Shown piece by piece: positions 10,011-61,428 of a DNA stretch of 64,000 nt (positions are counted from its first letter, which is position 1; each line of letters opens with the position of its first letter). Both the position numbers and the translations under genes were made by a program. The stretch spans positions 9,917 through 73,916 of the forward strand of contig JAQWUY010000027.1 of NCBI GenBank assembly GCA_029250225.1. Reading direction: 5' to 3'. Below the pieces are notes generated by a model, which was not told the DNA's origin, searched no databases, and saw nothing but the letters and a program-made list of their open reading frames with translations. The stretch is from Alphaproteobacteria bacterium (lineage in GTDB: Bacteria; Pseudomonadota; Alphaproteobacteria; JAQWUY01).

Positions 10011-10011
10011 A

Positions 10012-10620: not shown

Positions 10621-10621
10621 A

Positions 10622-10951: not shown

Positions 10952-11001
10952 CTGTTATATCCCCAAAGATTTTTGAGGATATTTTTATAGAAAAATATAT
11001 T

Positions 11002-12365: not shown

Positions 12366-12506
12366 GTGAATAAAACAATTGGTAAATAAGTGAATAAAAC
12401 CGAAGCTAATCAAAGACCTAATATAAATTAGTTTTAAAATTTTAGTAGCAAGGTTTTATGAGCGAAGTTTACAATTGGTAAATAAGTGAATAAAACCGAA
12501 GCTAAT
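12357..12506. repeat. short direct repeats: 36-nt unit ACAATTGGTAAATAAGTGAATAAAACCGAAGCTAAT x2 plus a 20-nt partial copy
   Basis: Identical 36-mers lie at 12375-12410 and 12471-12506. A 20-nt partial copy at 12357-12376 spans the stop codon of the upstream ORF. The repeats sit in the convergent gap between that ORF and fbaA. Confidence 0.8.
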
Positions 12507-12524
12507 TAAATATTTAAAACTAAT

Positions 12525-13595
12525 TTATCTAGCAATAGATTTACCAAAAGAGCCTAAATCCTTAAAGGCTTCGTTTAATCTTTCCACTATACCGGTTTGT
12601 CCGGCACGGAGCCATTTTCTTGGATCATAATATTTTTTCTGTGGTGTTCCTGTTTTTGGGCAAATTTGATGTTTAAATGCTAATTGATTTTCGTTTACAT
12701 ATTTACCGACTTGTTGTGAATTTGCAAATTGAGTATCTGTATCAATATTCATTTTAAATACACCATAAGAAACAGCTTGTTCTATCTTTTGTTTTTCAGA
12801 ACCTGAACCACCGTGGAAAACAAAATCTAATGAATTTTGTTCTAGACCCCTCTCTTTTTGTGCAAGTTCTTGTGAATTTTTAAGAATTTCAGGCCTTAAC
12901 TTTACATTACCTGGTTTGTATACACCGTGAACATTACCAAATGAAGCAGCAATAGAAAAATGACCAATAGAATTTAAACGATCATAAGCTTGTAATACAT
13001 CTTCCGGCTGTGTGTATAGATGTGCATTATCAGCAGAAACATCAATATCAGAACCAATGCCGTCTTCTTCTCCGCCGGTGCAACCTAGTTCAATTTCTAA
13101 GCTCATACCTAATGGAGACATTTGTTTTAACATTTTTTCTGATTCAGATAAATTAAAGTCTAAGTCCTCTTCGCTTAAATCTAACATATGCGAAGAAAAT
13201 AAAGGCTTTCCTGTACATTTTAAAAAATCCTTAGATTCATCAATTAATCCATATAACCAATCTATCAATCCACGATTTGCGTGATCTGTATGCAATGCAA
13301 CACAAATACCATATTGTTTTGAAACTGTGTGCATATATTGTGCAAAAGCTTTTGCACCTTGTATCTTATTTTCAAGAGTATTTTCCAAAGATGAACCACC
13401 AAAAAAATGAGCCCCGCCATTTGAAATTTGAATAATAACATCAGACTTGGCAAGTGCGGCAGCTTCTAGTACAGCAGAGGCAGTCGTCGAATCAACAACA
13501 TTAACCGCAGGCAAGGCATAACCACCCTTTTTACATTTTTTTACTAAGCTAATATAATCATCGCCTGTAACAACACCAGCTGAAATTGAACTCAT
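12525..13595 (-). CDS. fbaA: fructose-bisphosphate aldolase, class II
   Basis: The N-terminal block GVVTGDDYISLVKKCKKGGYALPAVNVVD and the block SNGGAHFFGG are class II FBA/tagatose-bisphosphate aldolase family hallmarks. I take the start as the internal Met at 13595, which is preceded by a GGGGGAAATA Shine-Dalgarno, rather than the upstream ATG at 13637. Confidence 0.85.
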   Translation of the reverse strand: MSSISAGVVTGDDYISLVKKCKKGGYALPAVNVVDSTTASAVLEAAALAKSDVIIQISNGGAHFFGGSSLENTLENKIQGAKAFAQYMHTVSKQYGICVALHTDHANRGLIDWLYGLIDESKDFLKCTGKPLFSSHMLDLSEEDLDFNLSESEKMLKQMSPLGMSLEIELGCTGGEEDGIGSDIDVSADNAHLYTQPEDVLQAYDRLNSIGHFSIAASFGNVHGVYKPGNVKLRPEILKNSQELAQKERGLEQNSLDFVFHGGSGSEKQKIEQAVSYGVFKMNIDTDTQFANSQQVGKYVNENQLAFKHQICPKTGTPQKKYYDPRKWLRAGQTGIVERLNEAFKDLGSFGKSIAR

Positions 13596-13898: not shown

Positions 13899-14354
13899 AT
13901 GAAAAAAGAAGATAGTATTAGAAAGAATATTTTATCTAGTAGAACAGGAATACCAAATCCGGTTGACATACACGTAGGTAAAAGATTAAAACAACGCCGT
14001 ATATTACTAGGTCTGAGTCAAACTCAGATGGCTGATATGTTAGGAATTTCATTTCAGCAAATACAAAAATATGAAAAAGGTACAAATAGAATATCAGCAT
14101 CAAGATTAGTTGATTTATCTAATGTTTTGGATGTGAATATTACATATTTCTTTAATGAAATACCTACAAATGTATTAAAACAATCTCCTAGATTAATGAC
14201 AAGCTTGAACGAAGAGCCGTCAAATGAGATTAAAGATAATCCTATGACAAAGCGTGAAACATTAACTCTCGTTCGTAATTATTATAAAATAACTGACGAA
14301 AAGAAACGCCGTAGTATAATCACACTTTGCAAAGCTTTAGCAGAAAAAAATTAA
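13899..14354 (+). CDS. XRE-family helix-turn-helix transcriptional regulator
   Basis: 151 aa. The HTH_XRE core (LGLSQTQMADMLGISFQQIQKYEKGTNRISASRL) resembles the small conserved alphaproteobacterial Cro/CI-type regulators. Confidence 0.75.
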   Translation: MKKEDSIRKNILSSRTGIPNPVDIHVGKRLKQRRILLGLSQTQMADMLGISFQQIQKYEKGTNRISASRLVDLSNVLDVNITYFFNEIPTNVLKQSPRLMTSLNEEPSNEIKDNPMTKRETLTLVRNYYKITDEKKRRSIITLCKALAEKN

Positions 14355-14453
14355 TAAATAGTTGACAAGTGGGTAAGAATCTAGCATAAATGCCTATAAT
14401 TATTTGTTAATGCATTTATTTGATGCATTCATTGTATTGGAAGGATAAACAAA

Positions 14454-14735
14454 ATGGCTCGTCGTTGTGAAATTACTGGTAAAGGTGTAATGAGTGGGAA
14501 CAATGTATCACACGCTGTAAACCGAACTCGTCGTCGTTTCTTACCGAATCTACAAAATAACACTTTGCAATCTGATATTCTAGGTGAAGGCGTTCGTTTG
14601 AAATTATCTACGAAAGCAATTCGCACTATTGATTTCAAAGGTGGCCTAGATTCTTTCTTGCTTGCAACTCCAAATCGTAAACTTACAGATGAAGCAGTAA
14701 AAGTTAAAAAAAGAATTCTAAAAAAACAAAAATAA
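14454..14735 (+). CDS. rpmB: 50S ribosomal protein L28
   Basis: 93 aa. [21 protein letters not shown]...RRRFLPNLQ is a near-canonical L28 N-terminus. A good Shine-Dalgarno (GGAAGGA) lies upstream. Confidence 0.9.
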
Positions 14736-14765
14736 TTTTATAAATTATTTTTACATAGATAATAA

Positions 14766-14798
14766 ACCTCACTAATTTAAAATATTAGTGGGGTTTTT
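14766..14798 (+). terminator. rho-independent terminator after rpmB
   Basis: A 10-bp stem CCTCACTAAT / ATTAGTGGGG with loop TTAAAAT is followed by TTTTTT. Confidence 0.7.
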
Positions 14799-14951
14799 TA
14801 TTTATATTTTAATGTTCATTAATTTTACCTTATTTATTTTTTATGATACAAATGAATAATTATATTAACAATAAAGATTCATAATAATTGCAATAAGTCT
14901 TATTAAAAATGGGGGAGTCTTTAATTATAAATTATGGGATAATCAATCTAA

Positions 14952-16415
14952 ATGACAAAAAAAATAATGTTTCAAGGAACTGGTTCTGATGTAGGAAAAT
15001 CGATGGTAGTAGCTGGATTTTGTCGTGCATTAAAAAAACAAAATATGTCACCGGCTCCATTTAAACCGCAAAATATGTCAAATAATGCTGGGATAACTAT
15101 TGATGGTGGTGAAATTGGTAGAGCGCAAATATTACAAGCTAGAGCCTGTAACATTGAACCGCATACAGATATGAATCCTGTTTTATTAAAACCGCAATCA
15201 AATATGGGTTCGCAAGTTGTTGTTCAGGGAAAAGTATTACAAAATTGCAAAAGTGAATATTTTCGTAAATTAAAACCAAAGTTTATGCAAGCAGTTCTGG
15301 AAAGTTTTAACAGATTAACAGATTCATACGACATTGTCGTTGTAGAGGGAGCCGGATCACCAGCAGAAATCAATTTACGAGAAGGTGATATTGCAAATAT
15401 GGGATTTGCCACAGAAACCAACACCCCTGTAATATTAGTTGTTGATGTGGATAGAGGCGGTTCTATTGCTAGTGTCGTTGGTACATATAACCTGTTACCG
15501 GAAAATGAAAAAAAATTGATTGTTGGATATATTATAAATAAATTCCGCGGGGATATATCATTGTATAAAGGAGCAATTGATGAAATAACAAATCGTACAA
15601 ATTTAAAATGTTTTGGTATTTTGCCGTGGTTTGAACAAGCAAAACTTTTACCTGCCGAAGATGGATTGGGCCTAGATAACCTAAAACATCAAAACATTAA
15701 AGCAAATTTTAAAATATGTGTCCTTCGCACACCGCGAATTTCTAACTTTGATGACCTTGATCCGTTATTTCAAACAGAAAATATAACCGTTCAGGTCATA
15801 GAAAATGGCCAAGCTTTACCCATTGATTGTGATATGATTTTGTTAGTTGGTAGTAAATCAACAATATCTGATTTAAAATATATTAAAGATTGCGGATGGC
15901 AGAATGATATAATATCTCATTATCGCCGTGGTGGTTTTGTAATGGGAATATGTGGTGGTTATCAAATGCTTGGTAAAAAACTTAGCGACCCTAAAAATTA
16001 TGAAAGCAATATTAAATCAATTGATGGAATAGGATTATTGGATTGTGAAACAACAATGTCTGATAATAAAAACCTAAGCCCATATGTTGGCATTGATACT
16101 ATAACTGGTACAAAATTTAATGGTTATGAAATGCATGTGGGTATTACGACTGGTAATGATACTAATAATCCATTTTCAATAGATATTAATAATAAAAAAG
16201 ACGGAGCAATTTCTGGATGCGGGAAAGTATTTGGTTCGTATGTACATTCAATTTTTAATGATGATGATTTTCGTCAAAACTTTTTAAAAAAAATTACTGG
16301 TTTTGAAATAGAGAAGCAAAGTTATAATAAAAATGTTGAAACAACCCTAGATGAACTTGCCTGCCATATTGAAAAATATATCGATATAGATGAAATATTA
16401 AAAATAAGTTATTAA
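14952..16415 (+). CDS. cobQ: cobyric acid synthase
   Basis: 487 aa. The N-terminal CobQ/CbiP P-loop-like region (MFQGTGSDVGKSMVVAGFCRAL...PFKPQNMSNNAGIT) is followed by a C-terminal glutamine amidotransferase domain (GICGGYQMLG). Confidence 0.85.
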   Translation: MTKKIMFQGTGSDVGKSMVVAGFCRALKKQNMSPAPFKPQNMSNNAGITIDGGEIGRAQILQARACNIEPHTDMNPVLLKPQSNMGSQVVVQGKVLQNCKSEYFRKLKPKFMQAVLESFNRLTDSYDIVVVEGAGSPAEINLREGDIANMGFATETNTPVILVVDVDRGGSIASVVGTYNLLPENEKKLIVGYIINKFRGDISLYKGAIDEITNRTNLKCFGILPWFEQAKLLPAEDGLGLDNLKHQNIKANFKICVLRTPRISNFDDLDPLFQTENITVQVIENGQALPIDCDMILLVGSKSTISDLKYIKDCGWQNDIISHYRRGGFVMGICGGYQMLGKKLSDPKNYESNIKSIDGIGLLDCETTMSDNKNLSPYVGIDTITGTKFNGYEMHVGITTGNDTNNPFSIDINNKKDGAISGCGKVFGSYVHSIFNDDDFRQNFLKKITGFEIEKQSYNKNVETTLDELACHIEKYIDIDEILKISY

Positions 16416-30570: not shown

Positions 30571-31818
30571 ATGCGTCCTAGTTTGTCATTATCAATAAAA
30601 CAAAAAAATGCTCCAAAAATATTGATGAAGCAACTGATAAAACTATTGCCTTTAAACGATACACAGCTAGAAGAAGTAATAAAAAAAGAGATGGAGCAAA
30701 ACCCATTTTTATTATTTAATAAAAACGAATCAACAAATGATATTACTAATTTTGATTTAAATGACGAGCAAATTAATACTCCGAGCATATATAAAATATT
30801 AATCCCGCAGATAGATGCCATATTTACAAGCAAGAAAGAATTAAAAATTGCATATGAAATGCTGGAATTAGTTGATGAAGATGGTTTTTTACGAGAACAA
30901 ATACCAAATATGAGCAATACAAAATATGATATATTGCAAAAATTACAAAAATTACACCCCGCAGGTGTGTTTTCAAGAAACCTAGTAGAATTTTATAATG
31001 CTTATTTATTAGGCACAAATCAATTAAATGAAAAATGGAAAATATTTTTAAATTCATTACACGATGTGGCACAAGGTAATACGGATGATTTAATAAACAA
31101 ACTAGGTAATAAAGAGACATTTGATATGATGATGCAAGATTTGAAATTATTGCCAACGGAGCCAGATATACCAAAAGCATTAGCACAACATATTACCCCA
31201 GATTTAATAGTAGAAAAAATAAGTGATGACTTCAAAGTTTCATTAAATTCAAATATCCACAAAATATTAAATATTGATGACGAATATGTGAATAATTTAA
31301 GAAAAGAAAATATTTTAAGTAATGATAAAAAATTTATTACGGAAAAATTTTCATCTGCAAAATGGTTAAAAAAAGCATTGTTGATGCGCGCGCAAAACCT
31401 TGTCAATATCACAGTTACAATCATATCAAAACAAAAAGAATTTATGAACGGTGGGCATTTAAACCCACTAACACTTAGTGATATTGCCAAAGATACAAAT
31501 GTTCATATTTCAACCGTATCAAGAATAGTAAATAATAAATATTTTTTATATAATGGTAAAACAACGGAATTAAAAAAAATGTTTTCGCCGTATGCAAATG
31601 GTGGTTTTAGTCAACAACAAATAATAAATAGAATTGTCGATATTATAAATAATGAAAAACAAACAAAAATTATTTTATCAGACGAACAAATAGTAAAAAA
31701 ATTAGAGCAAGAAAACATAAAGATATCAAGGCGAACTGTTGCGAAATATCGTCAAATATGTAAAATTGAATCATCAAGAAAACGCCGAGAAAAAAATATT
31801 TCTATACAAAACAATTAA
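30571..31818 (+). CDS. rpoN: RNA polymerase sigma-54 factor (short form)
   Basis: Region I is Leu/Gln-rich (LMKQLIKLLPLNDTQLEEVIKKEMEQNPFL). The C-terminal HTH (NVHISTVSRIV) and the RpoN box (RRTVAKYRQ) are present. At 415 aa it is shorter than typical RpoN. It is only 21 nt downstream of pepN. Confidence 0.8.
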   Translation: MRPSLSLSIKQKNAPKILMKQLIKLLPLNDTQLEEVIKKEMEQNPFLLFNKNESTNDITNFDLNDEQINTPSIYKILIPQIDAIFTSKKELKIAYEMLELVDEDGFLREQIPNMSNTKYDILQKLQKLHPAGVFSRNLVEFYNAYLLGTNQLNEKWKIFLNSLHDVAQGNTDDLINKLGNKETFDMMMQDLKLLPTEPDIPKALAQHITPDLIVEKISDDFKVSLNSNIHKILNIDDEYVNNLRKENILSNDKKFITEKFSSAKWLKKALLMRAQNLVNITVTIISKQKEFMNGGHLNPLTLSDIAKDTNVHISTVSRIVNNKYFLYNGKTTELKKMFSPYANGGFSQQQIINRIVDIINNEKQTKIILSDEQIVKKLEQENIKISRRTVAKYRQICKIESSRKRREKNISIQNN

Positions 31819-31821
31819 TAC

Positions 31822-33525
31822 CTAAAAATGCTTTATTAAACTCAAACCTATCGACTTGTCATAAACAGATTTCATACCGTGTTTTTCTGTATAATTTAAC
31901 GATGCTTTCAGCAACGTATTTGAAGCAAGTAAAACAGATATCCCGCCACTAATAGATCTTGCACTAACATTTTTACTTTCCACTGATGTGGGGTTTTTTC
32001 TATACAATTTCGAAAAACTAGCTGATAAAAATGGGGTAAATATATTACCTTTTATTACTTCGGGTTTAAAATTATATTCGGCATAAACACTATATCCTTC
32101 ATCACCCGTAAAACCATCACCAATTAACCCTTGAACTTTTTCAAAACCAGTAGCAATATATTGTTGACTAGATAATACTGGATTATTAAAAGTATATTGA
32201 AAATTAAATACAAATTTAAACTTTTCTCTGCTTAATAGATCTTTTAAAAATTTATAACTACCAATAAGGCGAGAGGCTGAACCCGTTACTCCGGAACGCG
32301 ACGAAGAAATACCGTTTATTGTATTATATTTTGCACCCAAATCATTTATTGATTTATTCAAAGAAAATTTAGTTTTATGCACTCCTTGTGTTGTTTTAAT
32401 AGTATGCTCACCAACAAGTGTAGCCTCCGCAATCGTATCTTTATATTGGTAAGTATTAGTATTTTTATTCTTCATTGTACTATTAGTATATTGAACACCA
32501 GCAGAAACATAAGATTGCTCTGAATAATTCAAAATAAGAGGCTTAGTATACATCACGCCAATATTTCTATTTTGACTATAAGAATTATAATTGTTGCTTG
32601 TAATAGAAGATGAAATAGATTGTAATAAAGACATTTCAATAGATGAACCTGTTATATAATATCTATTATATAACAATGTAAGGGAACGATAATAAGTGTT
32701 TGATGTTTGCTTTAACGAGAATGACGGTATTATTTTAATCGATTGACCGACATCATTTTTAACAAAATTATTAATTTTCATAATTTGTATCGAATAGCTT
32801 CCATACCTAGCATTTAGATTATTTTTAATAGAGGTTAAAAATTGTTTATCTTTATATGAAACCTTCACATTAACAATAAAGCCTCCTTGATTTTTCCCTC
32901 GACTTAAAAAAATCTTGCTAGATAAACCATACAAACCTTTAAGAATTAACATTTTTTCATTAATAGTTTTCACATCAATATATTCTTTATTTTTCAATGG
33001 GTCTAATATATTGAGAATTGCCTGTTCAACATTTCCATCTTCTTTTTTATCATTTTCTATAACAATATTCTCAATAATACCGCTAATAATGTATACCACT
33101 GGTTTTGCTTTTTTCGCTTCAAAACTCTGTGCTGGAAAAACAACGCGAACCATAGGATAGCCTATCATTACAAAATCTTTCTCCAATTGTTTTAGAAATC
33201 CAACCAGATCTTTTATCTTTATTTTTTGGTCTACTATCTGCTTTGTTTTATTATTTACAAAATCAACAATATTTTTAGGAGCTTTTATACTATATTTGTA
33301 ATCTATGGATTCTAAATATAAAGATGTTTTATTGTTTTCTAGCGCTCCAAAATCAGCACCAGATAAAGAGGGAATATTAATATTTCCCTTTTCGCCAATA
33401 ATATTTTTAATATCGCTCTCAAACTCTTTATTTGAATCTTTAGTATTAAATAAAGACACTCCCTCTGCCTTTAAGGGCAAGGGGACCAACAAGATCACCA
33501 AAAGAACGATAATTTTTTTAAACAA
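31822..33525 (-). CDS. two-partner secretion outer-membrane transporter (TpsB; ShlB/FhaC-family)
   Basis: 567 aa. It has a signal peptide (MFKKIIVLLVILLVPLPLKA), a POTRA-like N-terminal region and a beta-strand-rich C-terminal domain ending in an aromatic residue. It lies immediately downstream of the TpsA gene with a 35-nt gap. Confidence 0.65.
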   Translation of the reverse strand: MFKKIIVLLVILLVPLPLKAEGVSLFNTKDSNKEFESDIKNIIGEKGNINIPSLSGADFGALENNKTSLYLESIDYKYSIKAPKNIVDFVNNKTKQIVDQKIKIKDLVGFLKQLEKDFVMIGYPMVRVVFPAQSFEAKKAKPVVYIISGIIENIVIENDKKEDGNVEQAILNILDPLKNKEYIDVKTINEKMLILKGLYGLSSKIFLSRGKNQGGFIVNVKVSYKDKQFLTSIKNNLNARYGSYSIQIMKINNFVKNDVGQSIKIIPSFSLKQTSNTYYRSLTLLYNRYYITGSSIEMSLLQSISSSITSNNYNSYSQNRNIGVMYTKPLILNYSEQSYVSAGVQYTNSTMKNKNTNTYQYKDTIAEATLVGEHTIKTTQGVHKTKFSLNKSINDLGAKYNTINGISSSRSGVTGSASRLIGSYKFLKDLLSREKFKFVFNFQYTFNNPVLSSQQYIATGFEKVQGLIGDGFTGDEGYSVYAEYNFKPEVIKGNIFTPFLSASFSKLYRKNPTSVESKNVSARSISGGISVLLASNTLLKASLNYTEKHGMKSVYDKSIGLSLIKHF

Positions 33526-33560
33526 ATGTTAAAACTCTCCTAATTAATATACCAATACAT

Positions 33561-36434
33561 TTAATTTTTTAAATTATTATTAATATACGTTACATTTGAA
33601 ATTTCTTTTTTCTTAATATATTTAATTTTTTTCTTAACATTACCATTTTCGCTATCAGTAATTTTATATCTATTTGTTTTCATAAAATCAAATTTTTGCA
33701 ATCCTGTTTTTGATTTATATTTATAATTATTAGCTTTAATTGTAGTGTCTTCATTAGTATTAATTATAAAGCCATCATTAATATTAATTATAGAGTCTTC
33801 ATTGGTATTAATCATAGAGTCATCATTAGTATTAAGTGTAGAATCATCATTAGTATTAATTATAGAGTCGTCATTAATAATTAATTCTTTTTCATTAGAT
33901 CCACCCCACATATTAATTTCAACATTATTATTATTACTAATATTTTGTATAAGAGAAGCAATGTCAGAGTTAAAGGAAATTAATTCATTCTCTGTGCCTA
34001 AAGTGGTTTTTGAAGTAATATCATTGTTTTCCTGAGCCACCTCGGTAAGTTCATAATTATCTGCACTTTTAGAAACTAAGCATCTCGAATTATTAAAGAC
34101 ACAATAATTATTTAATCTGTTTTTTAATTTTAAAAATAATTGATCGGTTTTAATTTTATCAATATATCTTACTTGACCGTTTCTAAATTCAGGTAAATCA
34201 AACAGGTATACTGCACCTTTTTTTCTATTAATGCCATAAGCACCAACAGCAAGTTTATAACCATCTGCATCGCTACCAATTAAGCTTACCGAAGAACCGA
34301 AATAGTCACGAAAATGCAACCTACTTTCTGGGTTTAAATTTAATTGTTTTTTACCAATTTTATCAACATATCTTACTTGACCGTTTCTAAATTCAGATAA
34401 ATCAAAAAGGTATACTGCACCCTTTTTTCTATTAATGCCATAAGCACCAACAGCAAGTTTATAACCATCTGCATCGTTACCAATTAAGCTTACCGAAGAA
34501 CCGAAATTATCCCTATTATGCAACCTACTTTCTGGGTTTAAATTTAATTGTTTTTTACCAATTTTATCGACATATGTTATTAGGCCATTTCTAAGATTAT
34601 CTACATTAAACAAGTATACCGAACCTCTATATTTACTATCTCCATAAGCACCAACAGCAAGTTTATAATCACCCGTATCGTCAGCAACTAAGCTCACCGA
34701 AGAATTAAAATAATCGTAATTATGTAACTTGTTTTCTTTTTTATATCTAAATAATAAATTTAAATAGCTAATATTCTTCATTTTACTAACAAGAAGATTT
34801 TTAGGGTCTAACAATACTGTTCCAAAAGATTGACCAGAAACCTCCACTTTTGAAAATTTATATGATCTTGAAGATTTTTTACCAAATACTTGTACCCAGC
34901 CTCCATCATTAAAACCATTAGCTTTAATATTACCAAATTGTTGTGTTACACCATTCGACCATAAAACAACTGTACCACCATCTCCATTTACACTAGATGC
35001 ATCAACAAGTGCATCATACCCCAAAGATGTTTTATAAGAAGTTGGTAGATTTAAAAGGTTATCACCAAATACAGATGTCCAACGATCACGGAAACCTGTT
35101 AATACATTTTCGTCATACTCTTCAGATAGATTTCCCCCTCCAAATTCACCGCCTATACGAATTAAACCACCGGCTCTGTAACCTGTTGCAATAATTTTAG
35201 TACCATCCATCACAATAATATTACCATTATCAGTCGAAATATCAATTAAACCACCACGACCAGAAAAACCAGAGGCTGAAATTTTACCCTGTGTAATCAA
35301 TCGTTTTGAACCCGTATTAATACGAATAATGCCACCATCACCATTACCGTCTGATAGTATATTAGATTTTGCAAAAATATTAATATCTGAGTTAGATGAT
35401 ATAGATACTGCACCACCGCTAGAAGCAGGGGCTTTACCAGATGCATCTATCAAGCCTGTCTGAGTGTAAGAAGTAGAAGTAATATTTACATCACCTCCTT
35501 TTACATTAATAACATCACTAGAAACATCAACTGTGCCATTAAGGGAAACATCAGGCCCACTAATAATAATTTTACCTCTATCGGAAGAGGATACCGATTT
35601 TGCCTGAACAAGACCACGAATGTTTATAACTCGACGAAGGGTTTTTCTAACTGTGCCAACACTTAATTTTACTAAACCACCATATGATATAACTTTACCG
35701 CCATTATTTACGGAAATTATTTCTGATAATTTAATTCCATTAACATCCCTAATTGTATTTAAATTACTTGTTGGAATTTCAACACGCAAAAATTCAGAGT
35801 CACCTATGTTGAGAATGACCTTTTCTCCTGCACCGAAACCGACTTTACTTAAATGAGCCGTTACAACACCACCATTATCAATCGCACCGCCAAGTAAGGC
35901 AACAAAACCGCCATCATTAACCGCTATACTGCCGTTGTTTGTAACCACAGCACCAGCCTTTCCTGATTGCTTTACAAAAGATAGTTCTCCCCTTTTAAAA
36001 TCTTCGTTAGAAATATCTAGTGTAGAAGCCGAAAAAGAATTTGTATTAATAAGCCCATTTTCTGTGATTAAAATACCATTAGGATTAACTAAAAAAATCT
36101 GACCATTGGCTTTAATTCGTCCTGCTATGGTAGAGGGCGTAGAACCTAAAACACGATTTAAAGATTGTGATTGCGTTCTGGGTTGAACAAATTCAACCAA
36201 TTTATTTTGACCGACATCAAATGAACTCCAATCAATAATTGTCTTATCTGTATATTGATTAACTTTAATAAAATCTCGACCTTGGTTAATGCTAGCCTCA
36301 CCAGACTTTACAATACCACCGATTGGCAGTTCAGATGCCAAAACATCTCCACCCAATAAAAAGAAAAAAGATAAGAAAAACGAACACGACTTAATTATTC
36401 TCATCAAATTTTTATGCGAATTAAACATAACCAT
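33561..36434 (-). CDS. two-partner-secreted exoprotein (TpsA; filamentous haemagglutinin-type) with FG-GAP repeat C-terminal region
   Basis: 957 aa. An extended signal peptide is followed by a canonical TPS secretion domain (NRVLGSTPSTIAGRIKANGQIFLVNPNGI). A Gly/Asn-rich beta-helix region follows. Then come 3.5 copies of a roughly 68-aa FG-GAP-like repeat (FGSSVSLIGNDADGYKLAVGAYGINRKKGAVYLF). The protein ends in an Asn/Asp-rich decapeptide tandem repeat (NDDSIINTND). Confidence 0.8.
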   Translation of the reverse strand: MVMFNSHKNLMRIIKSCSFFLSFFFLLGGDVLASELPIGGIVKSGEASINQGRDFIKVNQYTDKTIIDWSSFDVGQNKLVEFVQPRTQSQSLNRVLGSTPSTIAGRIKANGQIFLVNPNGILITENGLINTNSFSASTLDISNEDFKRGELSFVKQSGKAGAVVTNNGSIAVNDGGFVALLGGAIDNGGVVTAHLSKVGFGAGEKVILNIGDSEFLRVEIPTSNLNTIRDVNGIKLSEIISVNNGGKVISYGGLVKLSVGTVRKTLRRVINIRGLVQAKSVSSSDRGKIIISGPDVSLNGTVDVSSDVINVKGGDVNITSTSYTQTGLIDASGKAPASSGGAVSISSNSDINIFAKSNILSDGNGDGGIIRINTGSKRLITQGKISASGFSGRGGLIDISTDNGNIIVMDGTKIIATGYRAGGLIRIGGEFGGGNLSEEYDENVLTGFRDRWTSVFGDNLLNLPTSYKTSLGYDALVDASSVNGDGGTVVLWSNGVTQQFGNIKANGFNDGGWVQVFGKKSSRSYKFSKVEVSGQSFGTVLLDPKNLLVSKMKNISYLNLLFRYKKENKLHNYDYFNSSVSLVADDTGDYKLAVGAYGDSKYRGSVYLFNVDNLRNGLITYVDKIGKKQLNLNPESRLHNRDNFGSSVSLIGNDADGYKLAVGAYGINRKKGAVYLFDLSEFRNGQVRYVDKIGKKQLNLNPESRLHFRDYFGSSVSLIGSDADGYKLAVGAYGINRKKGAVYLFDLPEFRNGQVRYIDKIKTDQLFLKLKNRLNNYCVFNNSRCLVSKSADNYELTEVAQENNDITSKTTLGTENELISFNSDIASLIQNISNNNNVEINMWGGSNEKELIINDDSIINTNDDSTLNTNDDSMINTNEDSIININDGFIINTNEDTTIKANNYKYKSKTGLQKFDFMKTNRYKITDSENGNVKKKIKYIKKKEISNVTYINNNLKN
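33740..33895. repeat. about five tandem copies of a 30-bp repeat inside tpsA (encoding NDDSxINTND)
   Basis: The unit ATCATTAGTATTAATTATAGAGTCTTC is visible by eye (33745-33890). A reverse-strand ORF with a reiterated peptide (ESSLVLII x4) mirrors it. Confidence 0.75.
34150..34760. repeat. about four tandem copies of a 204-bp repeat inside tpsA (FG-GAP repeat units); first two copies nearly identical
   Basis: Copy starts lie at about 34166 and 34370 (period 204 bp) and differ by only a few nucleotides. Copies at about 34560 onwards are progressively diverged. Confidence 0.8.
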
Positions 36435-36808
36435 ATAAACTCTTTAAAAGTTAAAATAATGAATAACTTATTTATTACACTAGATACTAATCTTATATTT
36501 TTTAATTACAACACCGTAAATAAAAGCCAATTAAAATAATTAAGCTCTTTTTTATTTAGTTTTAATTATTTTACTTAATTAAGACAAAAATAAATATTAT
36601 GTGTAAGAAAAACAATCTAAAACATAGACAAAAAAAATACACTTGTCAACAACGTATTTACATTTTTATTTACTTTTAGTAAAATTATTTAACAGAAAAA
36701 ATAATAAAAAAAAATCATAATAAAAAAATACAGATATATCAATGCTAAAGGTTGCAAAAAGTAATAAAATATGTGAAATTGAATCATTAGTAAAAAAAGA
36801 AAGAATAA

Positions 36809-46995: not shown

Positions 46996-47709
46996 CTATG
47001 TCAACATAAAACTATTATTTGGCATTATTTCCAAAATATTTTTGCTATTATCTTGTGGGCGATCAAGCATAAATATAGGTATCTTGCGTTTAATGGCAAC
47101 TGCAATTTTATTATAATTCATATCACCGCCTGAATTCTTGCAAACTAAGGCTTGGAAATTATATTTATCGAACAATAATTGCTCGTTATTTATACTATAA
47201 GGCCCTTTATCAACAAGGCATTCACCATTATTTATAGGAATTTTTTTCACAGTTCTAGCAATTACATAACAATTTAAATCATTATAATCACCCATTGATT
47301 TTGCCCCTAGGGTGAAAAACACATTGCCCTTAATGTTGGCTAGTTTTTGTTTTATTTCATTACTATCTTTGCAATTAATCCAATCGTCATCGTTGTTTTT
47401 TTGCCATTCTTTACGAATATAGCGAATTGTTTCAATGTCTAGTTCTTGGCTAACAATGTTAACTGTATTTGTAATATTGCTAGCATATGGGTGTGTTGCA
47501 TTAATTATTTTGGTAATATTATTTTTAATTATATAATTTTTTAAACCATTTATACTATCGTTTTGTTCAGAAAAACCACCTATTCTAACCTGTGCGTTTT
47601 TTGGTGTAGCCGGATTATCCGTTACCCCAGCAATAGAATAAATATATGGTTGAGTTAATTGCTCGCCAATTTTAATAGCATCTCTTGTTCCGCCTAATAA
47701 TAATATCAT
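46996..47709 (-). CDS. cbiJ: cobalt-precorrin-6A / precorrin-6A reductase
   Basis: 237 aa. MILLLGGTRDAIKIGEQL and INATHPYASNIT match the CobK/CbiJ conserved blocks. Confidence 0.8.
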   Translation of the reverse strand: MILLLGGTRDAIKIGEQLTQPYIYSIAGVTDNPATPKNAQVRIGGFSEQNDSINGLKNYIIKNNITKIINATHPYASNITNTVNIVSQELDIETIRYIRKEWQKNNDDDWINCKDSNEIKQKLANIKGNVFFTLGAKSMGDYNDLNCYVIARTVKKIPINNGECLVDKGPYSINNEQLLFDKYNFQALVCKNSGGDMNYNKIAVAIKRKIPIFMLDRPQDNSKNILEIMPNNSFMLT

Positions 47710-47712
47710 ATT

Positions 47713-48786
47713 TTAATCCTTAATATGTGAAATAACATCACCGCTTCTATTTACAATTAATACATTAACTTTCTTGATTTTTTTACCAATTTTTTTAGCC
47801 TGATTTTGCGCACAAATTGCTATGTGATGACCTATGTTTAAACTGGGGCTAATTGTAGTCAAAACTTCCAATGCAGTATTAGCCGTTTTAACAAAATTAA
47901 TTTCATTATCACTACCGCCTATCTGTTCAACAAATTCAGATAATTTTTGAAAATCAACCTGTGATCTAGACGAATGCAAATCACGGTTTCCTTGTGCAAG
48001 TTTTACCATTTTTGCAAACCCGCCTGATATTGTAATTTCCTCAACATTATTATTACTAGCATATTTTAACATACCCCCGACAAAATCACCCATATCTATA
48101 TATGACTCATTTTTCAAACCCAATACTTGCATTGCCTTGTTTTCAGAAGTTTTACCAGTTGAGCCAACCATATGCTGAATATTCATCGCCATCGCCACAT
48201 CTATCCCGCGGTATATTGAATGTATCCACGCACTACACGAATACGGTATAACAACCCCACTTGTGCCAAGTATTGATAATCCATCAGTTATACCTAATCT
48301 AGGGTTCCAAGTTTGCTTAGCCAAATCTTCCCCGTTTTTTATGGATACTTCAACTATCCAATTATTATGCCCTGAAATTGCCACAATGTTTTTTTCTATC
48401 ATTTGGCGAGGTTTTGGGTTTATAGCAGGTTCACCAACATCAAGCGGTAAACCTTTTTTAGTAACTGTTCCTACACCTTTGCCCGCAATAAATTTTATAT
48501 TATTTGCTTTATTCTTCTTTATTTTTACTGTTATTTCACAATTATGAGTAATATCCGGATCATCACCCGCATCTTTGATAGTAGATGCAATTGCTTGATT
48601 TTCATCAAATTCAAAATTAAAAATCTTAAACTCTTTTGCTCCCGCCGGTAAATCAATTGTAATAGTATCAACTTTTTCTTGCTTAATAATCCCGTATACA
48701 CAAGCACTAGAACAAGCTGTGGCACAGGCTCCTGTGGTCCAACCTTTCTTTAATTTTTTTGTATTTATTATTTCTTTTTCACTCAT
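47713..48786 (-). CDS. cbiD: cobalt-precorrin-5B (C1)-methyltransferase
   Basis: 357 aa. The blocks LKKGWTTGACATA, GKGVGTVTKKGLPLDVGEPAINPKPRQMI and NPRLGITDGLSILGTSGVVIPYS closely follow the Salmonella CbiD conserved regions. This enzyme is specific to the anaerobic (early cobalt insertion) route. Confidence 0.85.
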   Translation of the reverse strand: MSEKEIINTKKLKKGWTTGACATACSSACVYGIIKQEKVDTITIDLPAGAKEFKIFNFEFDENQAIASTIKDAGDDPDITHNCEITVKIKKNKANNIKFIAGKGVGTVTKKGLPLDVGEPAINPKPRQMIEKNIVAISGHNNWIVEVSIKNGEDLAKQTWNPRLGITDGLSILGTSGVVIPYSCSAWIHSIYRGIDVAMAMNIQHMVGSTGKTSENKAMQVLGLKNESYIDMGDFVGGMLKYASNNNVEEITISGGFAKMVKLAQGNRDLHSSRSQVDFQKLSEFVEQIGGSDNEINFVKTANTALEVLTTISPSLNIGHHIAICAQNQAKKIGKKIKKVNVLIVNRSGDVISHIKD

Positions 48787-48832
48787 AATAATTTATGTTA
48801 TATGATATTAATGAACAGACGATAACACTTTT

Positions 48833-49654
48833 ATGACAAACATACTAAAACTATTTTCAAAATCCAAGAAAGATTCAAAACATAATCAAAATTTTGATAG
48901 CTTTTCCCCGACTTTTGAAAAAGGTACAGTTTGGATTGCTGGTTCTGGGCCTGGTGATGTTGGCTTGCTAACAATTAATGTTTTTAATGCATTAAAAAAT
49001 GCCGATATAATCGTTTACGATGCATTAGTTAATAAAGAAATCCTAGATCTAGCAAACCATAAATGCGAAAAAGTATATGCCGGTAAACGAGGTGGCAAAC
49101 CAAGCACAAAACAAAAAGATATATGTGATATATTAATTAAGTTCGCAAAATCTGGCAAGCGAGTACTAAGATTAAAAGGCGGTGACCCTTTTGTTTTTGG
49201 TCGCGGTGGCGAAGAGGCGATAGCATTAAAACGAAATAATATTAATTTTCGCATAATACCTGGAATTACCGCAGGTATTGGCGGTATGGCATATGCAGGA
49301 ATTCCCGCCACACACCGTGAAACAAATTACACTATAACTTTTGTAACTGGACACGCAAGTTCAGGGGAAATTCCTGATAATATATGTTGGAAATCATTAT
49401 CAGCTCCATCACAAGTACTAGTATTATATATGGCATTAAAACATATTGATAATATTACAAACAAATTAATAAATTCTGGTAAAGATAAAAACACACCTGT
49501 TGCTATTGTACAAAATGCAACAATGAAAAATATGAAAATTCAAACTGGTAAATTATCTGAACTAATTGAGATTGCTAAAAACTTTGAACCGCCGGCTATT
49601 GTTGTCATAGGCGAAGTGGTTAATTTACAAGAAACATTAAATTGGCTTAAATAA
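48833..49654 (+). CDS. cobA: uroporphyrinogen-III C-methyltransferase (SUMT)
   Basis: 273 aa. VWIAGSGPGDVGLLTINVFNALKNADIIVYDALV is the class III tetrapyrrole methylase N-terminal signature, and VLRLKGGDPFVFGRGGEE is the second motif. Confidence 0.85.
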   Translation: MTNILKLFSKSKKDSKHNQNFDSFSPTFEKGTVWIAGSGPGDVGLLTINVFNALKNADIIVYDALVNKEILDLANHKCEKVYAGKRGGKPSTKQKDICDILIKFAKSGKRVLRLKGGDPFVFGRGGEEAIALKRNNINFRIIPGITAGIGGMAYAGIPATHRETNYTITFVTGHASSGEIPDNICWKSLSAPSQVLVLYMALKHIDNITNKLINSGKDKNTPVAIVQNATMKNMKIQTGKLSELIEIAKNFEPPAIVVIGEVVNLQETLNWLK

Positions 49655-49655
49655 A

Positions 49656-50963
49656 ATGACAAGTGTTCTTATTGCTGGGGCTTCAACAAATAGCGGTAAA
49701 ACAATTATTACCGCATCGATATTAAGAGCATTAAAAAATCGTGGCTTAAATGTTCGTGGTGGTAAAATCGGGCCTGATTATATCGACCCGAAATTTCACG
49801 CTATCGCTAGTGATAGTTTTTCATTAAATGTCGATGCTTGGGCAATGAATGACAATACTTTACACCGCAACCTAGCAACAATGGAACAAGATTCAGATAT
49901 TACAATAATTGAAGGAGTAATGGGATTATTTGATGGGGCTAGTGATGGTAGCGCTTCATCAGCAGAAGTTGCTAAAAAAATGGGCTTGCCTATTATTCTT
50001 TGTCTTGATGTGTGGGGGCAAAGTCAATCAATATCTGCTATTGTAAATGGCTTTGATACATTGGACAAAGACATTAAAATATCTGGAATAATATTAACTA
50101 GAATTGGCACCGAAAAACATTTAAAAATATTAAAACAATCATTACAAAAATATATCCCGCATATTCCACTAATCGGCACAATATTTCGTAATGAAATATT
50201 TGAACTAGAATCAAGACATCTTGGATTAGTACACCCATCATCGGAAAATGATAAAACATTAAATAAATTGCTAGATAAAACCGCTAATATTATTTCACAA
50301 CAAGTTGATTTAGATAAATTAATTAGCATAGGTAAAAAATCAAAAGCCATAACAAATGATAAAATTGCAATACCTAAGTTTAGTAATCATATCGCTGTGT
50401 CATATGATAAAGCGTTTAGTTTTTGCTACCCACATATTATAAACAGTTGGAAAAAAGAAGGAGCTGAGATTTCATTCTTTTCCCCACTAAATGATGAAGC
50501 ACCAGATGAAAACGCATCTTCAATTTATTTATGCGGTGGCTATCCTGAATTATACTGTGAAACCCTTGCCAAGAATAAAATATTTAAATTAGGAATGTTA
50601 AAACACGCCGAAAAAGGAACATTTATATTTGGTGAATGTGGGGGGTTTATGACACTCGGTAAATCAATCACCGATAAAAATAATGTTGAACATAAAATGC
50701 TAGGGTTGCTAGATTTAAAAACATCGTTCGCTAAGAAAAAATTACATTTATCTTATCAGAATATTAAATTATTAAAAGAGTGTAACCTAGGCACAAAAAA
50801 TTCATTATTCAAAGGACACGAATTTCACTATGCAACAATCACACATCAATCAGGTGAACCTTTGTTTGAAGTTAATAATGCTTGTAACAGTAAAAATGAA
50901 ATAGTAGGGCTGGTAAATAATAATGTAATTGGTTCATTTATTCATTTAATTGATAAAATTTAA
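49656..50963 (+). CDS. cbiA: cobyrinate a,c-diamide synthase
   Basis: 435 aa. The N-terminal AAA_26/CobB ATP-binding region is VLIAGASTNSGKTIITASILRAL, and the C-terminal GATase domain contains GECGGFMTLG. The start overlaps the cobA stop. Confidence 0.8.
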   Translation: MTSVLIAGASTNSGKTIITASILRALKNRGLNVRGGKIGPDYIDPKFHAIASDSFSLNVDAWAMNDNTLHRNLATMEQDSDITIIEGVMGLFDGASDGSASSAEVAKKMGLPIILCLDVWGQSQSISAIVNGFDTLDKDIKISGIILTRIGTEKHLKILKQSLQKYIPHIPLIGTIFRNEIFELESRHLGLVHPSSENDKTLNKLLDKTANIISQQVDLDKLISIGKKSKAITNDKIAIPKFSNHIAVSYDKAFSFCYPHIINSWKKEGAEISFFSPLNDEAPDENASSIYLCGGYPELYCETLAKNKIFKLGMLKHAEKGTFIFGECGGFMTLGKSITDKNNVEHKMLGLLDLKTSFAKKKLHLSYQNIKLLKECNLGTKNSLFKGHEFHYATITHQSGEPLFEVNNACNSKNEIVGLVNNNVIGSFIHLIDKI

Positions 50964-51369: not shown

Positions 51370-52140
51370 TTATACCTCTATTTCATCATTACCGTATAAA
51401 TCTTTAAATCCTTTTTCGACTTGCGAAATATATTCAGGGTCACCATCTCGCCAATATTTTGGATTATCCATCATTTTATAAAGACCAGCTTGGGTAATAC
51501 CAGATGCTTGATTATTATCAGTTATTGGAAATTCTCGTGACGATTCCATCATTGCATACAAATTTTTAATTCCTTTTACATCATATGATAATTCATCAAA
51601 AGTTGTTTTATTTAAATTTGCACTTCCCCAATTTGCAATATCTAGTTTTATTTTTTCCCATTTTTCAACTCCCCCAAAATGCAACGATAGCTCTTGCTCC
51701 ATTAACTCGATTTTTTCATTGGCGATTTGATTTAGTTCTTCCCCCATATACTCATTCGCCATTTCATATACTTTTTGAGCTTGGGCTTGTGAAAAACCAT
51801 TTTCAATCATTTGTTGCTCTAAATCATTATTACGACTTATATTCATTTCATCTATATTTATATCATATCCTTGTTCAGGTATAACATTGTTATCATCAAC
51901 TTGCTGTTCAATGTCCTTGTCTTGTGAATAAAATTTCTTTTCCAATTCACTATACGACTTTAATATTTGTTCATACTGTATTTTACCATCTTTGATAAAT
52001 TTTTCAGGTACATTATCAATAGAAATATTTTCCTGTGTAACCCTATCACTATCAGTTTCACCTTGCTCAGATAACATAACATTATCCGTATTTTTATCTT
52101 CATTTGCACTATTTAAATTTTCGCTGTTAATCTCTACCAT
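51370..52140 (-). CDS. hypothetical acidic protein (pI strongly acidic, Glu/Asp/Gln-rich)
   Basis: 256 aa. It has good translation signals: an AAGGAAGGA Shine-Dalgarno 10 nt before the ATG and a TTGACA-N17-TATTAA promoter upstream. I recognise no family. Its composition is reminiscent of scaffold, chaperone or effector-type acidic proteins. Confidence 0.5.
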   Translation of the reverse strand: MVEINSENLNSANEDKNTDNVMLSEQGETDSDRVTQENISIDNVPEKFIKDGKIQYEQILKSYSELEKKFYSQDKDIEQQVDDNNVIPEQGYDINIDEMNISRNNDLEQQMIENGFSQAQAQKVYEMANEYMGEELNQIANEKIELMEQELSLHFGGVEKWEKIKLDIANWGSANLNKTTFDELSYDVKGIKNLYAMMESSREFPITDNNQASGITQAGLYKMMDNPKYWRDGDPEYISQVEKGFKDLYGNDEIEV

Positions 52141-52269: not shown

Positions 52270-53277
52270 TTAAATTACGAGATGCGTTGCAATTAATAAA
52301 ACTAATATAGCTATAAATATCGTTTCAAGAATAATTAGCAATACATATTTATAGCCAATATTAAAAATATCTTTAAATGAAGTTTTAAGCCCCAATGCAA
52401 ACACAGCCATTGTTAGTAATATTTTTGAAATAAATGAAAGTGTTGTATTTATTTGCCAATTAATAGCCGGTAATTCAAAAAGTAATAAATCAAAACTATT
52501 AAAACCAACAAGTATAATAAACACAATTAAAAATGTTGGAAATGGTGCTTGTGTATTTATTTCATTATCTTGTGATTTATTTTTTAGAACTAATGCCATT
52601 ATTATTGCTAATAAAAATACTACTGGCAACAACATTGCAACTCGGAATAATTTTGTTACAGTTGCGATATCACCAACTTTTTCAGAAATACTTAACCCAG
52701 CCCCTACTACTTGTGCCACATCGTGTATAGAACCACCCAAGAACACTCCGGCTTGTAAAGAATTATATTCCATATACTTTATAATTAATGGATATAATAC
52801 CATTGCAATTGTACTTAAAATATTAACAGCCACAATAACAAATAATGTTTGTTTTTCAATTCTTTTATTGTGTGGAAATATACTTGAAACTGCCATAGCC
52901 GCAGATGCTCCACAAATAGCAACAGCCCCGCCCGATATGGTTCCTATCCTAGAATCAAGCCCTATTAAACGAGCAACAACAATACCAAAAAATATAGTTA
53001 CAAAAACCGATAAAACCAAAGCAAATAAAACATCAAAACCTAATATTGACATTTCATTGAATGTAATTCTTGCCCCCAATAATGCAACACCTATCCTTAG
53101 TATTTTTTTACCTGTATAATCTACACCTTGTTTAGTTTTTTCATTATATAATAATGATGATAATAAAATACCGATAAACAGAGCATAAAGCATATATGAA
53201 CCACCTATATACTTTGATAAAATTTGCGACAAAATCGCAAAAATCAAGCACATGATGATAACTAATAAATTTTTCAT
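52270..53277 (-). CDS. UPF0324/YeiH-family inner-membrane protein (putative sulfate exporter family)
   Basis: 335 aa with about 10 TM segments. The N-terminal block LSQILSKYIGGSYMLYALFIGILLSS and overall topology are YeiH-like. Confidence 0.55.
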   Translation of the reverse strand: MKNLLVIIMCLIFAILSQILSKYIGGSYMLYALFIGILLSSLLYNEKTKQGVDYTGKKILRIGVALLGARITFNEMSILGFDVLFALVLSVFVTIFFGIVVARLIGLDSRIGTISGGAVAICGASAAMAVSSIFPHNKRIEKQTLFVIVAVNILSTIAMVLYPLIIKYMEYNSLQAGVFLGGSIHDVAQVVGAGLSISEKVGDIATVTKLFRVAMLLPVVFLLAIIMALVLKNKSQDNEINTQAPFPTFLIVFIILVGFNSFDLLLFELPAINWQINTTLSFISKILLTMAVFALGLKTSFKDIFNIGYKYVLLIILETIFIAILVLLIATHLVI

Positions 53278-53463: not shown

Positions 53464-54975
53464 TTATTGATATGTTACATCGTAAGTAAATTCCTTCGCA
53501 TTATACTTAGTTCCACCTTCTAATTTCAATTTAATTTTTATTGTTCCTGAATTACCAGCACCAGTGCTAGTAGGATTAGCGACTAATTTATTCCCCGTAA
53601 AGCTACCTGTATTAATACCTGTAATCCCACCATCATCTGTCACCTCAAATGATAGAGTACCCATTTCAGTTGCATTATAAGCTACTTCACTTGAGCCGTT
53701 AGAAGAAGTAGAAAGTTTAAGATTACTTGCAGTAGGAAGAGTATATTGAGCACTATCAGCAATAGTAAGGTTAGAACCACTCAAACTAGAACCCAAATAA
53801 CCATAAGGATTGTTAGCACGATTAATTGTAACATTATAATCAACTGTTTTTTCATTATACTTATTATTAGTCGTAATTACTGCTCGAATTTTTATAGTGG
53901 TAGAAGTACCTGAACTGATAGTTGCACCGCTAAGGCTAAGAGTGCTACCTGAAATTGTCGCATTTGTAGTATTGTTTGCGTTGTTTATTGAGTATCTTAC
54001 CGTACCCATTGTATTAGAGGCATATCCAGTGCTACTAGCTAAAGCAACATCAACAGTACCGCCTAAAGTTGCTGTAAAACTAGGAGCGGTAATAGTTATG
54101 TTTTGTTTATCAAACTCTACATTGTATGTTCCAACATTACCAGAATTATACTTAGTACCGCCAGATGCTGATACTGTAACAGTTACTGAACCGGATTGAT
54201 CAGCAGAAACAACACCATTACTTATACTAAAACCAGAAGTACCCGACGGAATTGCATATGTAAGCGAACCCATTTCAGTTGTATTATAACTAGATGGTGT
54301 TACTGCTGCCACTGTTGTTCCCCATGCTACTGAGGTAGGGTTGCTAAATGATAATGCAGTTGCAGATTGTCTATCAAATGTTATAGTGTATGATCCAATA
54401 GTAGCACCAATGTATTGATTACCACCAAGTGTTGTTACTCGAACATTAATTGTACCAAATGAAGTAGCACCAGAAGCCACACCTGTAGAGCTATTCACAG
54501 AAGCACCAGTATTATTTGTGCCAATAATAGTATATGCATAAGCACCATATTTAGCTGAATTATAATCATTTGGAGCCGTAATAAGACTACTAGGCGAAGC
54601 GGAATTAGCATAAGAACTACCTGAAGCAATCACAGTTGCAGGATTTCCACTTACATTAAAACCACTCGGTGCATTAGTATTAATTGTAACATTATAATCA
54701 ACTGTTGCTGCATTATAATAACCATTAGCCGCAATTATTGCTCGAATTTGTATAGTGGCAGAAGTACCTGAACTGATAGTTGCACCGCTAAGGCTAAGAG
54801 TACTACCTGAAATTGTCGCACCTGTAGTATTGCCTGTGCTGTTTATTGAGTATGTTACCGCACCCATTGTACTAGAATCGTATCCAGTGCTACTAGCTAA
54901 AGCAACATCAACAGTACCGCCTATAGTTGCTGTAAAACTAGGAGCGGTAATACTTGTAATAACTAATCTTTTTTC
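53464..54975. repeat. tandem duplication of an approx. 860-bp unit within the surface-protein gene
   Basis: The ORF-track frames at 53897-54199 and 54755-55060 translate to about 85%-identical peptides offset by 858 bp. At the protein level, residues about 315-603 correspond to about 604-817. Confidence 0.8.
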
Positions 54976-60414: not shown

Positions 60415-60483
60415 ACTCTCCTTTAAACGAAATTCAAATTAATTGTTATAATATAGAACTAAAAAAGTAAAGAAATTTAATTA

Positions 60484-61425: not shown

Positions 61426-61428
61426 AAG

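Follow-up and report, generated by a model that had tools for sequence, protein, structure and literature searches.

We report on two adjacent minus-strand genes, tpsA (33561..36434; 957 amino acids [aa]) and tpsB (31822..33525; 567 aa), found in a 64,000-nucleotide stretch of the alphaproteobacterial contig JAQWUY010000027.1 (the window). Together, sequence analysis and structure models suggest that they probably encode a functional type Vb (two-partner) secretion pair of a compact, low-GC marine alphaproteobacterium, in which the bladed part of the exported fibre would form the adhesive head. The sequence evidence makes the exported passenger, TpsA, most likely an adhesin that evolves fast, its bearer being a planktonic marine alphaproteobacterium. 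Judged by its homologs, it is a reduced, new member of a widespread, uncharacterised TpsA subfamily, and its fusion of a two-partner secretion (TPS) domain to FG-GAP-type blades is not unique. An original prediction made from this DNA had already proposed a two-partner pair, and that proposal stands: the TPS domain of TpsA is accompanied, 35 bp away, by a divergent TpsB.

The tpsA open reading frame (ORF), whose product is identical to NCBI entry MDG1153909.1, begins with a predicted Sec signal peptide (residues ~1 to 33; 36336..36434; all features of the pair lie on the minus strand). This was recognized by eye from a hydrophobic core followed by an inferred cleavage site between VLA and SE (...GGDVLA-SE), and the AlphaFold2 per-residue confidence score (pLDDT) is <50 over residues 1 to 32. 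Next comes the TPS secretion domain (residues 43 to 214; 35793..36308), which, in agreement with the original prediction, is matched by both PF05860 (94.1 bits; cut-off, 33.5) and the NCBIfam model TIGR01901 (72.6 bits; cut-off, 29.1). It displays the LNRV and LVNPNGI motifs, the latter at residues 114 to 120, and L92, R94, V95, N117, and G120 are invariant across 49 TpsA relatives. The AlphaFold2 model of TpsA, obtained from the 49-sequence alignment (mean pLDDT, 74.9), presents residues 33 to 550 as a β-helix with pLDDT mostly >90, likewise as had been proposed. Past the TPS domain, this is predicted to form a right-handed β-helix stalk (residues 215 to 550; 34785..35792) that ends in a family-wide GTVLLDPKN junction (residues 538 to 546), where LLDP is nearly invariant in the relatives' alignment; the junction is common to all FG-GAP-bearing relatives and is followed by a low-confidence linker (residues 551 to 569). 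In a Foldseek comparison of the model with the PDB, secretion domains ranked first, namely, those of EtpA (8cpk; 5.8e-22), HMW1 (2odl; 4e-17), and HxuA (4i84), and the FHA and HpmA secretion domains were also among the matches.

The C-terminal third of TpsA had been predicted to consist of FG-GAP-type blades rather than an FHA-type extension, and the data agree. The FG-GAP_2 model PF14312 matches three stretches (43.9 bits; cut-off, 23); it does so in place of the models that had been suggested, since, apart from PF05860 for the TPS domain, neither the classical FG-GAP models PF01839 and PF13517 nor the Fil_haemagg models match TpsA at E ≤ 1. Tandem Repeats Finder detected a 204-bp (68-aa) unit in 2.8 copies with 86% matches, which resolves to three full units and a degenerate half-unit: unit 1 (residues 572 to 639; 34518..34721; four strands within 575 to 625), unit 2 (residues 640 to 707; 34314..34517; four strands within 642 to 693), and unit 3 (residues 708 to 775; 34110..34313; four strands within 715 to 762), and a hidden Markov model (HMM) of the unit likewise counts three. 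Pairwise protein identities among the three are 66%, 79%, and 51%. The half-unit (residues ~776 to 800, FNNSRCLVSKSADNYELTEVA; 34035..34109) retains only 12 to 16 of 68 positions identical to the full units and went undetected by the unit HMM. In the AlphaFold2 model, each 68-aa unit comprises four β-strands (pLDDT, 80 to 93), and in Foldseek searches dozens of integrin alpha propellers align to the units over ~205 to 217 columns (E of ~1e-5; 17 to 21% identity), the three units superimposing on about three consecutive integrin alpha blades. Because of these four-stranded models and propeller alignments, we read the units as propeller-type blades, as modelled, and not as β-helix coils, the fold that would have spoken against the original prediction. 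Its count of 3.5 copies fits this assembly, in which the blade set is indeed incomplete, although the number is not fixed: the long-read contig of a close strain (L006) has five units, the fifth again followed by the half-unit remnant.

From residue 773 on, pLDDT drops below 50, and the C-terminal 185 residues (773 to 957) are of low complexity and predicted to be disordered. The tail proper (residues 801 to 957; 33564..34034), delimited by pLDDT and composition, is rich in Asn, Asp, and Lys and includes an array that had been described as decapeptides; it actually consists of six copies of an octapeptide, NTNDDSxI (residues 852 to 899; 33738..33881; Tandem Repeats Finder period of 24 bp, 6.5 copies). 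The length of this array varies among strains, and the last ~60 residues, a basic C terminus, are kept.

The identification of the partner was less direct. A word-indexed homolog search with the 567-aa protein returned only six close relatives, and a phmmer search of the PDB gave only spurious matches to LipL32 and an RNase. When 1.84 billion representatives were searched exhaustively by HMMER with a family profile, 152 proteins of ~550 to 600 aa were retrieved, with E values down to 1e-78; among relatives sampled across the E-value range, ShlB (PF03865) was found in 57 of 58 and POTRA_2 (PF08479) in all 58. Since these relatives are ShlB/POTRA_2 proteins, transitive homology identifies the window protein, as far as profiles can tell, as a divergent TpsB, i.e., an Omp85-family transporter of the ShlB/FhaC type. 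In the protein itself, a candidate POTRA region of the ShlB type (residues 92 to 137; 33115..33252) scores 22.1 bits with PF08479, short of the cut-off of 24. The family profile also weakly matches the protein of PDB entry 3mc8 (deposited as Alr2269; E = 0.016), which we take to be the POTRA domains of an Anabaena Omp85, and aligns collinearly by hhalign with the canonical TpsB of Syntrophus gentianae, a weak match (E = 0.0015; probability, 17%) that serves as supporting evidence only. A further hhalign comparison with an alignment of wider relatives was discarded as circular, as that alignment contains the window protein. The structure model, itself of low confidence, shows a signal peptide, an α/β N-terminal region, ~16 to 18 long strands, and a C-terminal Phe; its strand pattern, together with alignment motifs, places the predicted β-barrel at residues ~216 to 567 (31825..32880). 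Even with a pLDDT of 48, its best Foldseek matches in the PDB are BamA, Sam50, FhaC, CdiB, and TamA (E of ~1e-5). A GDEG motif lies at residues 474 to 477, with D475 present in 56 and G477 in 53 of 59 aligned relatives.

The fusion, for which the original prediction had advised a check elsewhere, turns out to recur in many lineages. About two dozen of the best 120 TpsA relatives pair PF05860 with PF14312; others share the same ~545-residue N-terminal module up to the LLDP(K)N junction and carry different heads, including PA14/GLEYA, MBG, GLUG, and autotransporter-associated repeats. A scan for the junction across GTDB species genomes recovered LLDPKN plus FG-GAP in metagenome-assembled genomes (MAGs) or genomes labelled as Rickettsiales, Parvularculaceae, Sneathiellaceae, Azospirillaceae, Methylotenera, Nitrospinaceae, Chlorobiaceae, Gastranaerophilales, Fuerstiella, and Pseudobdellovibrionaceae. 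A first alignment of the junction was too diverse to yield a pattern, a scan of genome contigs with TpsA as the single query found no relative, and an exact look-up of a 955-aa form listed by NCBI returned no contig. With the unit HMM, 13 of 16 distant relatives have six units, and 13, eight, and five units occur in one each, compared to three in the window TpsA and its close relatives; the figure of about seven copies, previously used as the benchmark for closure, thus does not describe this family, in which six detectable units prevail. We found no description of a TPS-FG-GAP fusion in the literature searched for FG-GAP with two-partner secretion, filamentous hemagglutinin, or TpsA propellers. 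As for gene order, tpsA does precede tpsB, as had been noted, yet this is not the peculiarity it was taken for: the A-then-B order is seen in relatives, including Syntrophus gentianae (tpsA-tpsA-tpsB[ShlB]-SapC-TPR-tpsA), and is therefore the norm of the subfamily. Two further observations concern its genomics. Forty-five of the 76 junction loci come from a single alphaproteobacterial MAG, contig OZ254962.1 of 2,965,790 bp (L007 to L053 and L072), a massive paralog expansion, one of whose several members (P0009) has no adjacent TpsB. At the locus of another relative (L005), a 452-aa ORF made only of FG-GAP_2 (12199-13557) follows the gene with 13 units, and a CRISPR cluster of type III (Csm) lies ahead of that gene.

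Close strains and one more distant relative allow the history of the arrays to be followed. The order mutS-pepA-tpsA-tpsB-rpoN-pepN-mreBCD is kept in four other assemblies, among them L006, whose tpsA (10001-13277) encodes the five full units mentioned above; its octapeptide copies number about nine to ten (Tandem Repeats Finder, 9.2), and those of another relative (P0003) about two, as read from the tail. The third window unit is a chimera by cross-strain comparison of units, its first ~50 aa being of the unit 2 type and its last 18 aa of the type of the terminal unit of other strains. A 61%-identical relative (P0007) also has the tpsA/tpsB pair, but there the surrounding genes are different and SapC and a 231-aa gene separate tpsA from tpsB; its tpsA has exactly three units, after which come a stop codon and further genes. 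Its units are 76 to 92% identical to each other and 37 to 51% identical to those of the window and close strains; this greater likeness within the array than between lineages points to concerted evolution. The most serious doubt about the window array is that five or six real units were collapsed by short-read assemblers; the incomplete propeller would in that case be an artefact, while the rest of our interpretation would stay intact. The internal units 2 to 4 of L006 are nearly identical (91 to 95% at the nucleotide [nt] level, with exact runs of up to 113 nt), distant relatives mostly have six units, and the exact window allele occurs on five contigs, all inspected ones having names in the style of short-read assemblies (k119_..., scaffold_...). 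Recurrence of that allele on five contigs nevertheless means that the count of three is reproducible; moreover, the DNA of the window units is only 69 to 84% identical and no exact run exceeds 54 nt, several strains carry three-unit alleles whose third units differ, the 61%-identical relative has its own three-unit array, and L006 may be just another allele. We therefore regard an assembly under-count as a minority possibility, though one to be taken seriously. Frameshifts in L006 also split many genes, among them pepN, an ABC transporter gene, tpsA, and tpsB; as housekeeping genes are affected too, these splits are probably long-read errors.

Codon differences point to an unusual mode of change in both proteins. 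We counted synonymous and nonsynonymous codon differences between strains and compared them by Fisher test with those of four flanking housekeeping genes, which between the window and L001 show 80 synonymous and 25 nonsynonymous differences. The corresponding counts are 0 and 10 for tpsB (12829-14505 in L001; p = 2.5e-6), 5 and 19 for the stalk (p = 6.7e-7), and 3 and 12 for FG-GAP units 1 and 2 (p = 3.9e-5). The nonsynonymous excess is seen again with a second strain, L085, and a comparison of L001 with L085 finds only 18 differing codons in the flanks but 23 among the 136 codons of units 1 and 2. Against the 61%-identical relative, the ratio of nonsynonymous to synonymous rates (dN/dS) is 0.17 for the TPS domain, 0.41 for the stalk, 0.62 for the FG-GAP region, and 0.34 for tpsB; as these values lie well below 1, the pair is, on codon evidence, maintained over the long term, with amino acids that appear to change unusually fast between close strains. 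To us, this suggests that a surface structure is under diversifying pressure, with relaxed constraint as the alternative. In its strong form, the latter would have the locus heading for loss, its short array a product of decay and its excess changes mere drift, and a divergent TpsB lacking the canonical L6 Arg, an array shorter than those of relatives, and the lack of a SapC partner between the two genes would all suit it. Decay sits poorly, however, with the finding of both ORFs unbroken in five or more short-read assemblies as well as in the 61%-identical relative, with the low deeper dN/dS of the TPS domain and tpsB, and with the 0:10 ratio of tpsB, which is more extreme than neutral expectation; the split genes of L006 look like read errors, as set out above. 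We consider it improbable.

Taken together, the observations suggest the following course of events. TpsA would be exported via Sec, and the POTRA domains of the adjacent divergent TpsB would recognise its TPS domain; it would then be threaded through the TpsB barrel and fold outside the cell as a β-helix stalk of ~500 residues. Past the LLDPKN junction, the stalk would bear a short array of FG-GAP_2 blades, three in this case, and then the disordered Asn/Asp-rich tail holding the octapeptide array and the conserved basic end. The blades, in a distal position on the fibre, most likely represent a ligand-binding (adhesive) head. Recombination would change the copy number of both repeat arrays, and the exposed parts of both proteins may diversify fast between co-occurring strains under pressure from phages, grazers, or strain recognition. 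What the data show are the identities of the domains, the modelled fold of the blades, membership of the family, the variation of the repeats, and the pattern of substitutions; secretion itself, exposure at the surface, a role in adhesion, and the agent of selection are what we infer from them. For secretion of TpsA, the evidence is the adjacency of the genes (35 bp, same strand) and a pairing kept in relatives.

Several points weigh against this interpretation. Three blades cannot close a propeller in cis, and the calcium loop of integrin blades, defined as Dx[DN]xDG (PMC3123361), is missing from the units, which read GNDADG, GSDADG, and ADDTGD with the first Asp absent. The 567-aa protein itself has no ShlB (PF03865) match at E ≤ 1, so that the TpsB-like neighbour of the original prediction is established through its relatives and not by a direct hit, and only after deep profile searching; its structure model is poor, and its L6 tetrad (residues 464 to 467) reads VQGL without the Arg of the VRG[YF] found in canonical TpsBs, a position occupied by Ser in 36 and Arg in 13 of 59 aligned relatives. 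There is no SapC gene between the window tpsA and tpsB, the rest of the window not having been searched for SapC. Finally, dN/dS between close strains is ~1 for the stalk and FG-GAP segments, as relaxed constraint would also give, and the substitution tests draw on consensus sequences from MAGs, comparing only three strains of which two are closely related, with recombination a possible contributor to the pattern. Integrin-type calcium binding by the units was rejected on inspection of the motif.

The original prediction had cast the protein as a surface adhesin or host mimic of a host-associated bacterium, that is, an integrin-mimicking adhesin of a symbiont that engages ligands of its eukaryotic host. 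The blades do resemble integrin alpha blades in fold, the genome is low in GC (~30% in the window) and compact, and weakly related junction-plus-FG-GAP genes occur in MAGs labelled as Rickettsiales and Micavibrio-like. Yet the window has no marker of host dependence, and the metabolism that it encodes is self-sufficient, with β-oxidation, haem O synthase and an oxidase of the cytochrome o type, cobalamin biosynthesis, C1 metabolism, formate-tetrahydrofolate (THF) ligase, RACo, and an oligopeptide ABC transporter. The record of one relative is named 'marine.metagenome', and an oxidase fragment at least 90% identical to that of the window comes from a Tara surface sample of the 0.22- to 1.6-μm fraction; FG-GAP_2 TpsAs occur in free-living Syntrophus, Methylotenera, Nitrospinaceae, and Chlorobiaceae; and the likeness to integrins amounts to 17 to 21% identity without calcium loops. 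Host mimicry is hence very unlikely, and the locus does not support the notion of an integrin mimic aimed at a host. Still less credence can be given to TpsA as a contact-dependent toxin (CdiA-like) or ShlA-type cytolysin. These are common roles of TpsA proteins, and a variable C terminus superficially recalls polymorphic toxins, but Pfam searches detected no toxin, VENN/pre-toxin, or Fil_haemagg domain in TpsA, its C-terminal 185 residues are the disordered low-complexity region described above, and no small immunity-like ORF follows tpsA, tpsB starting 35 bp on and then abutting rpoN. We rejected this reading, as neither such a domain nor an immunity gene was found. A long shot of another kind takes the three units, exactly half of the modal six-unit array of the subfamily, to be a half-propeller, two fibres on the same or neighbouring cells completing a six-bladed propeller in trans. 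If so, the diversifying blades would act as a strain-specific device for self-recognition or aggregation in a planktonic bacterium, its specificity retuned by copy-number change (three to five) and gene conversion. An adhesin with a bladed head, exported by its divergent partner, remains the explanation that we favour.

The surroundings of the pair are those of a compact genome. Gaps between genes in the window have a median length of 23 bp, eight of them measuring only 1 to 3 bp, and 93% of the sequence is taken up by ORFs of 150 aa or more. On the tpsB side, plus-strand rpoN converges on the pair with a gap of 3 bp. This tight abutment had been remarked on, and the spacing itself was correctly read; it is ordinary for such a genome, however, and carries no meaning for the locus, as no sigma-54 site (GG-N10-GC) occurs in the 374 bp upstream of tpsA. 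That AT-rich region (36435..36808; no strand), among the longest intergenic gaps of the window, separates tpsA from the divergent pepA and presumably holds the promoter; pepA and mutS are the neighbours on this side. A sigma-70 promoter scan gave 35 sites versus 35.0 expected, a chance level that makes it uninformative, and an Rfam scan of the window returned no matches. The rpoN homolog (30571-31818) is short (415 aa), scores 251.8 bits against an NCBIfam equivalog cut-off of 277.35, and is labelled a hypothetical protein by NCBI (P8N25_03505). In some relatives, a SapC-family gene (PF07277) accompanies tpsA and tpsB, as at 4179-4898 in a close relative (L002) and 14252-14974 in a distant one (L004).

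Farther away, the window encodes a second adhesin-type outer-membrane protein (817 aa; 53464-55917, minus strand) with an inverse-autotransporter β-domain (PF11924, 71 bits). About 1.3 kb from it, with one gene (52270-53277) intervening, a 256-aa ORF (51370-52140, minus strand) weakly matches a phage T7 capsid assembly family (34.8 bits), which may be a compositional artefact. The cobalamin genes (CobQ/CobB-type amidotransferases, CbiJ, CbiD, and a corrin methylase), at 14952-16415, 46996-50963, and 58738-63462, accompany the formate-THF ligase and a RACo-type corrinoid activator, a notable set for an apparently small, compact genome.

A few pathogens have provided a good understanding of type Vb secretion. 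The locus described here belongs to a large, phylogenetically wide TpsA subfamily that is undescribed in the searchable literature and whose members place FG-GAP_2 blades on top of a conserved module of 545 residues for export and stalk. As a natural minimal version of that architecture, with three blades and a very divergent TpsB in a compact marine genome, the window TpsA is of moderate value; its changing repeat number, recombination within the gene, and amino-acid change faster than in neighbouring genes also make the locus a convenient case for studying how surface proteins of ocean bacterioplankton diversify.

Among characterised systems, the paradigm of type Vb secretion is FHA (FhaB)/FhaC of Bordetella. 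Its transporter, FhaC (4ql0 and 4qky), is among the fold matches of the window TpsB model, with VRGY in the L6 tetrad where the window protein has VQGL; compared to FHA, the window TpsA is much shorter and lacks both Fil_haemagg repeats and a recognisable prodomain. The C-terminal part of the mature FHA fibre is distal, an analogy by which the blades of TpsA would be distal too, and the A-then-B gene order is found in the FHA and HMW1 loci as well. HMW1/HMW1B of Haemophilus influenzae and EtpA/EtpB of enterotoxigenic E. coli share with the window pair the TPS domain and β-helix fibre and, as predicted for the window proteins, a Sec signal and a dedicated Omp85-type partner. In structure, the N-terminal half of TpsA matches EtpA and HMW1 best, at ~25% identity over the Foldseek alignment, which lies in that half. 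Unlike the window TpsA, they have no FG-GAP blades; conversely, the window pair has no adjoining glycosyltransferase partner of the HMW1C/EtpC type, and its TpsB is far more divergent than HMW1B or EtpB. With the propeller of integrin alpha, the window units share four-stranded blades, an FG...GAP-like signature, and a superposition over ~210 residues; integrins have seven blades per chain with Dx[DN]xDG, whereas the window TpsA has three (five in L006) without that motif, fewer per chain than are needed for closure, and this likeness in fold gives no evidence of common function.

In terms of a presumed adhesive role, a parallel is offered by Bap1 and RbmC of Vibrio cholerae, which leave the cell through the type II pathway rather than with the help of a TpsB. 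They lack a TPS domain and a β-helix stalk and are likened here to the window TpsA by description rather than by sequence. Both are secreted adhesive proteins of the biofilm matrix with FG-GAP repeats, their domains comprising VCBS repeats and jacalin-like lectin domains (PMC7841849). Further counterparts are the uncharacterised TPS-LLDPKN-FG-GAP_2 relatives, which are 29 to 39% identical to the window TpsA; at 1,200 to 1,600 aa, they usually have six units and then, unlike the window protein, further β-helix or DUF5649. Syntrophus gentianae (three paralogs, GCA_900109885.1), which differs from the window in its canonical ShlB TpsB and SapC gene, and the MAG with contig OZ254962.1 (~45 loci) both display the same architecture, the same junction, and the same tpsA-then-tpsB order as the pair described here.

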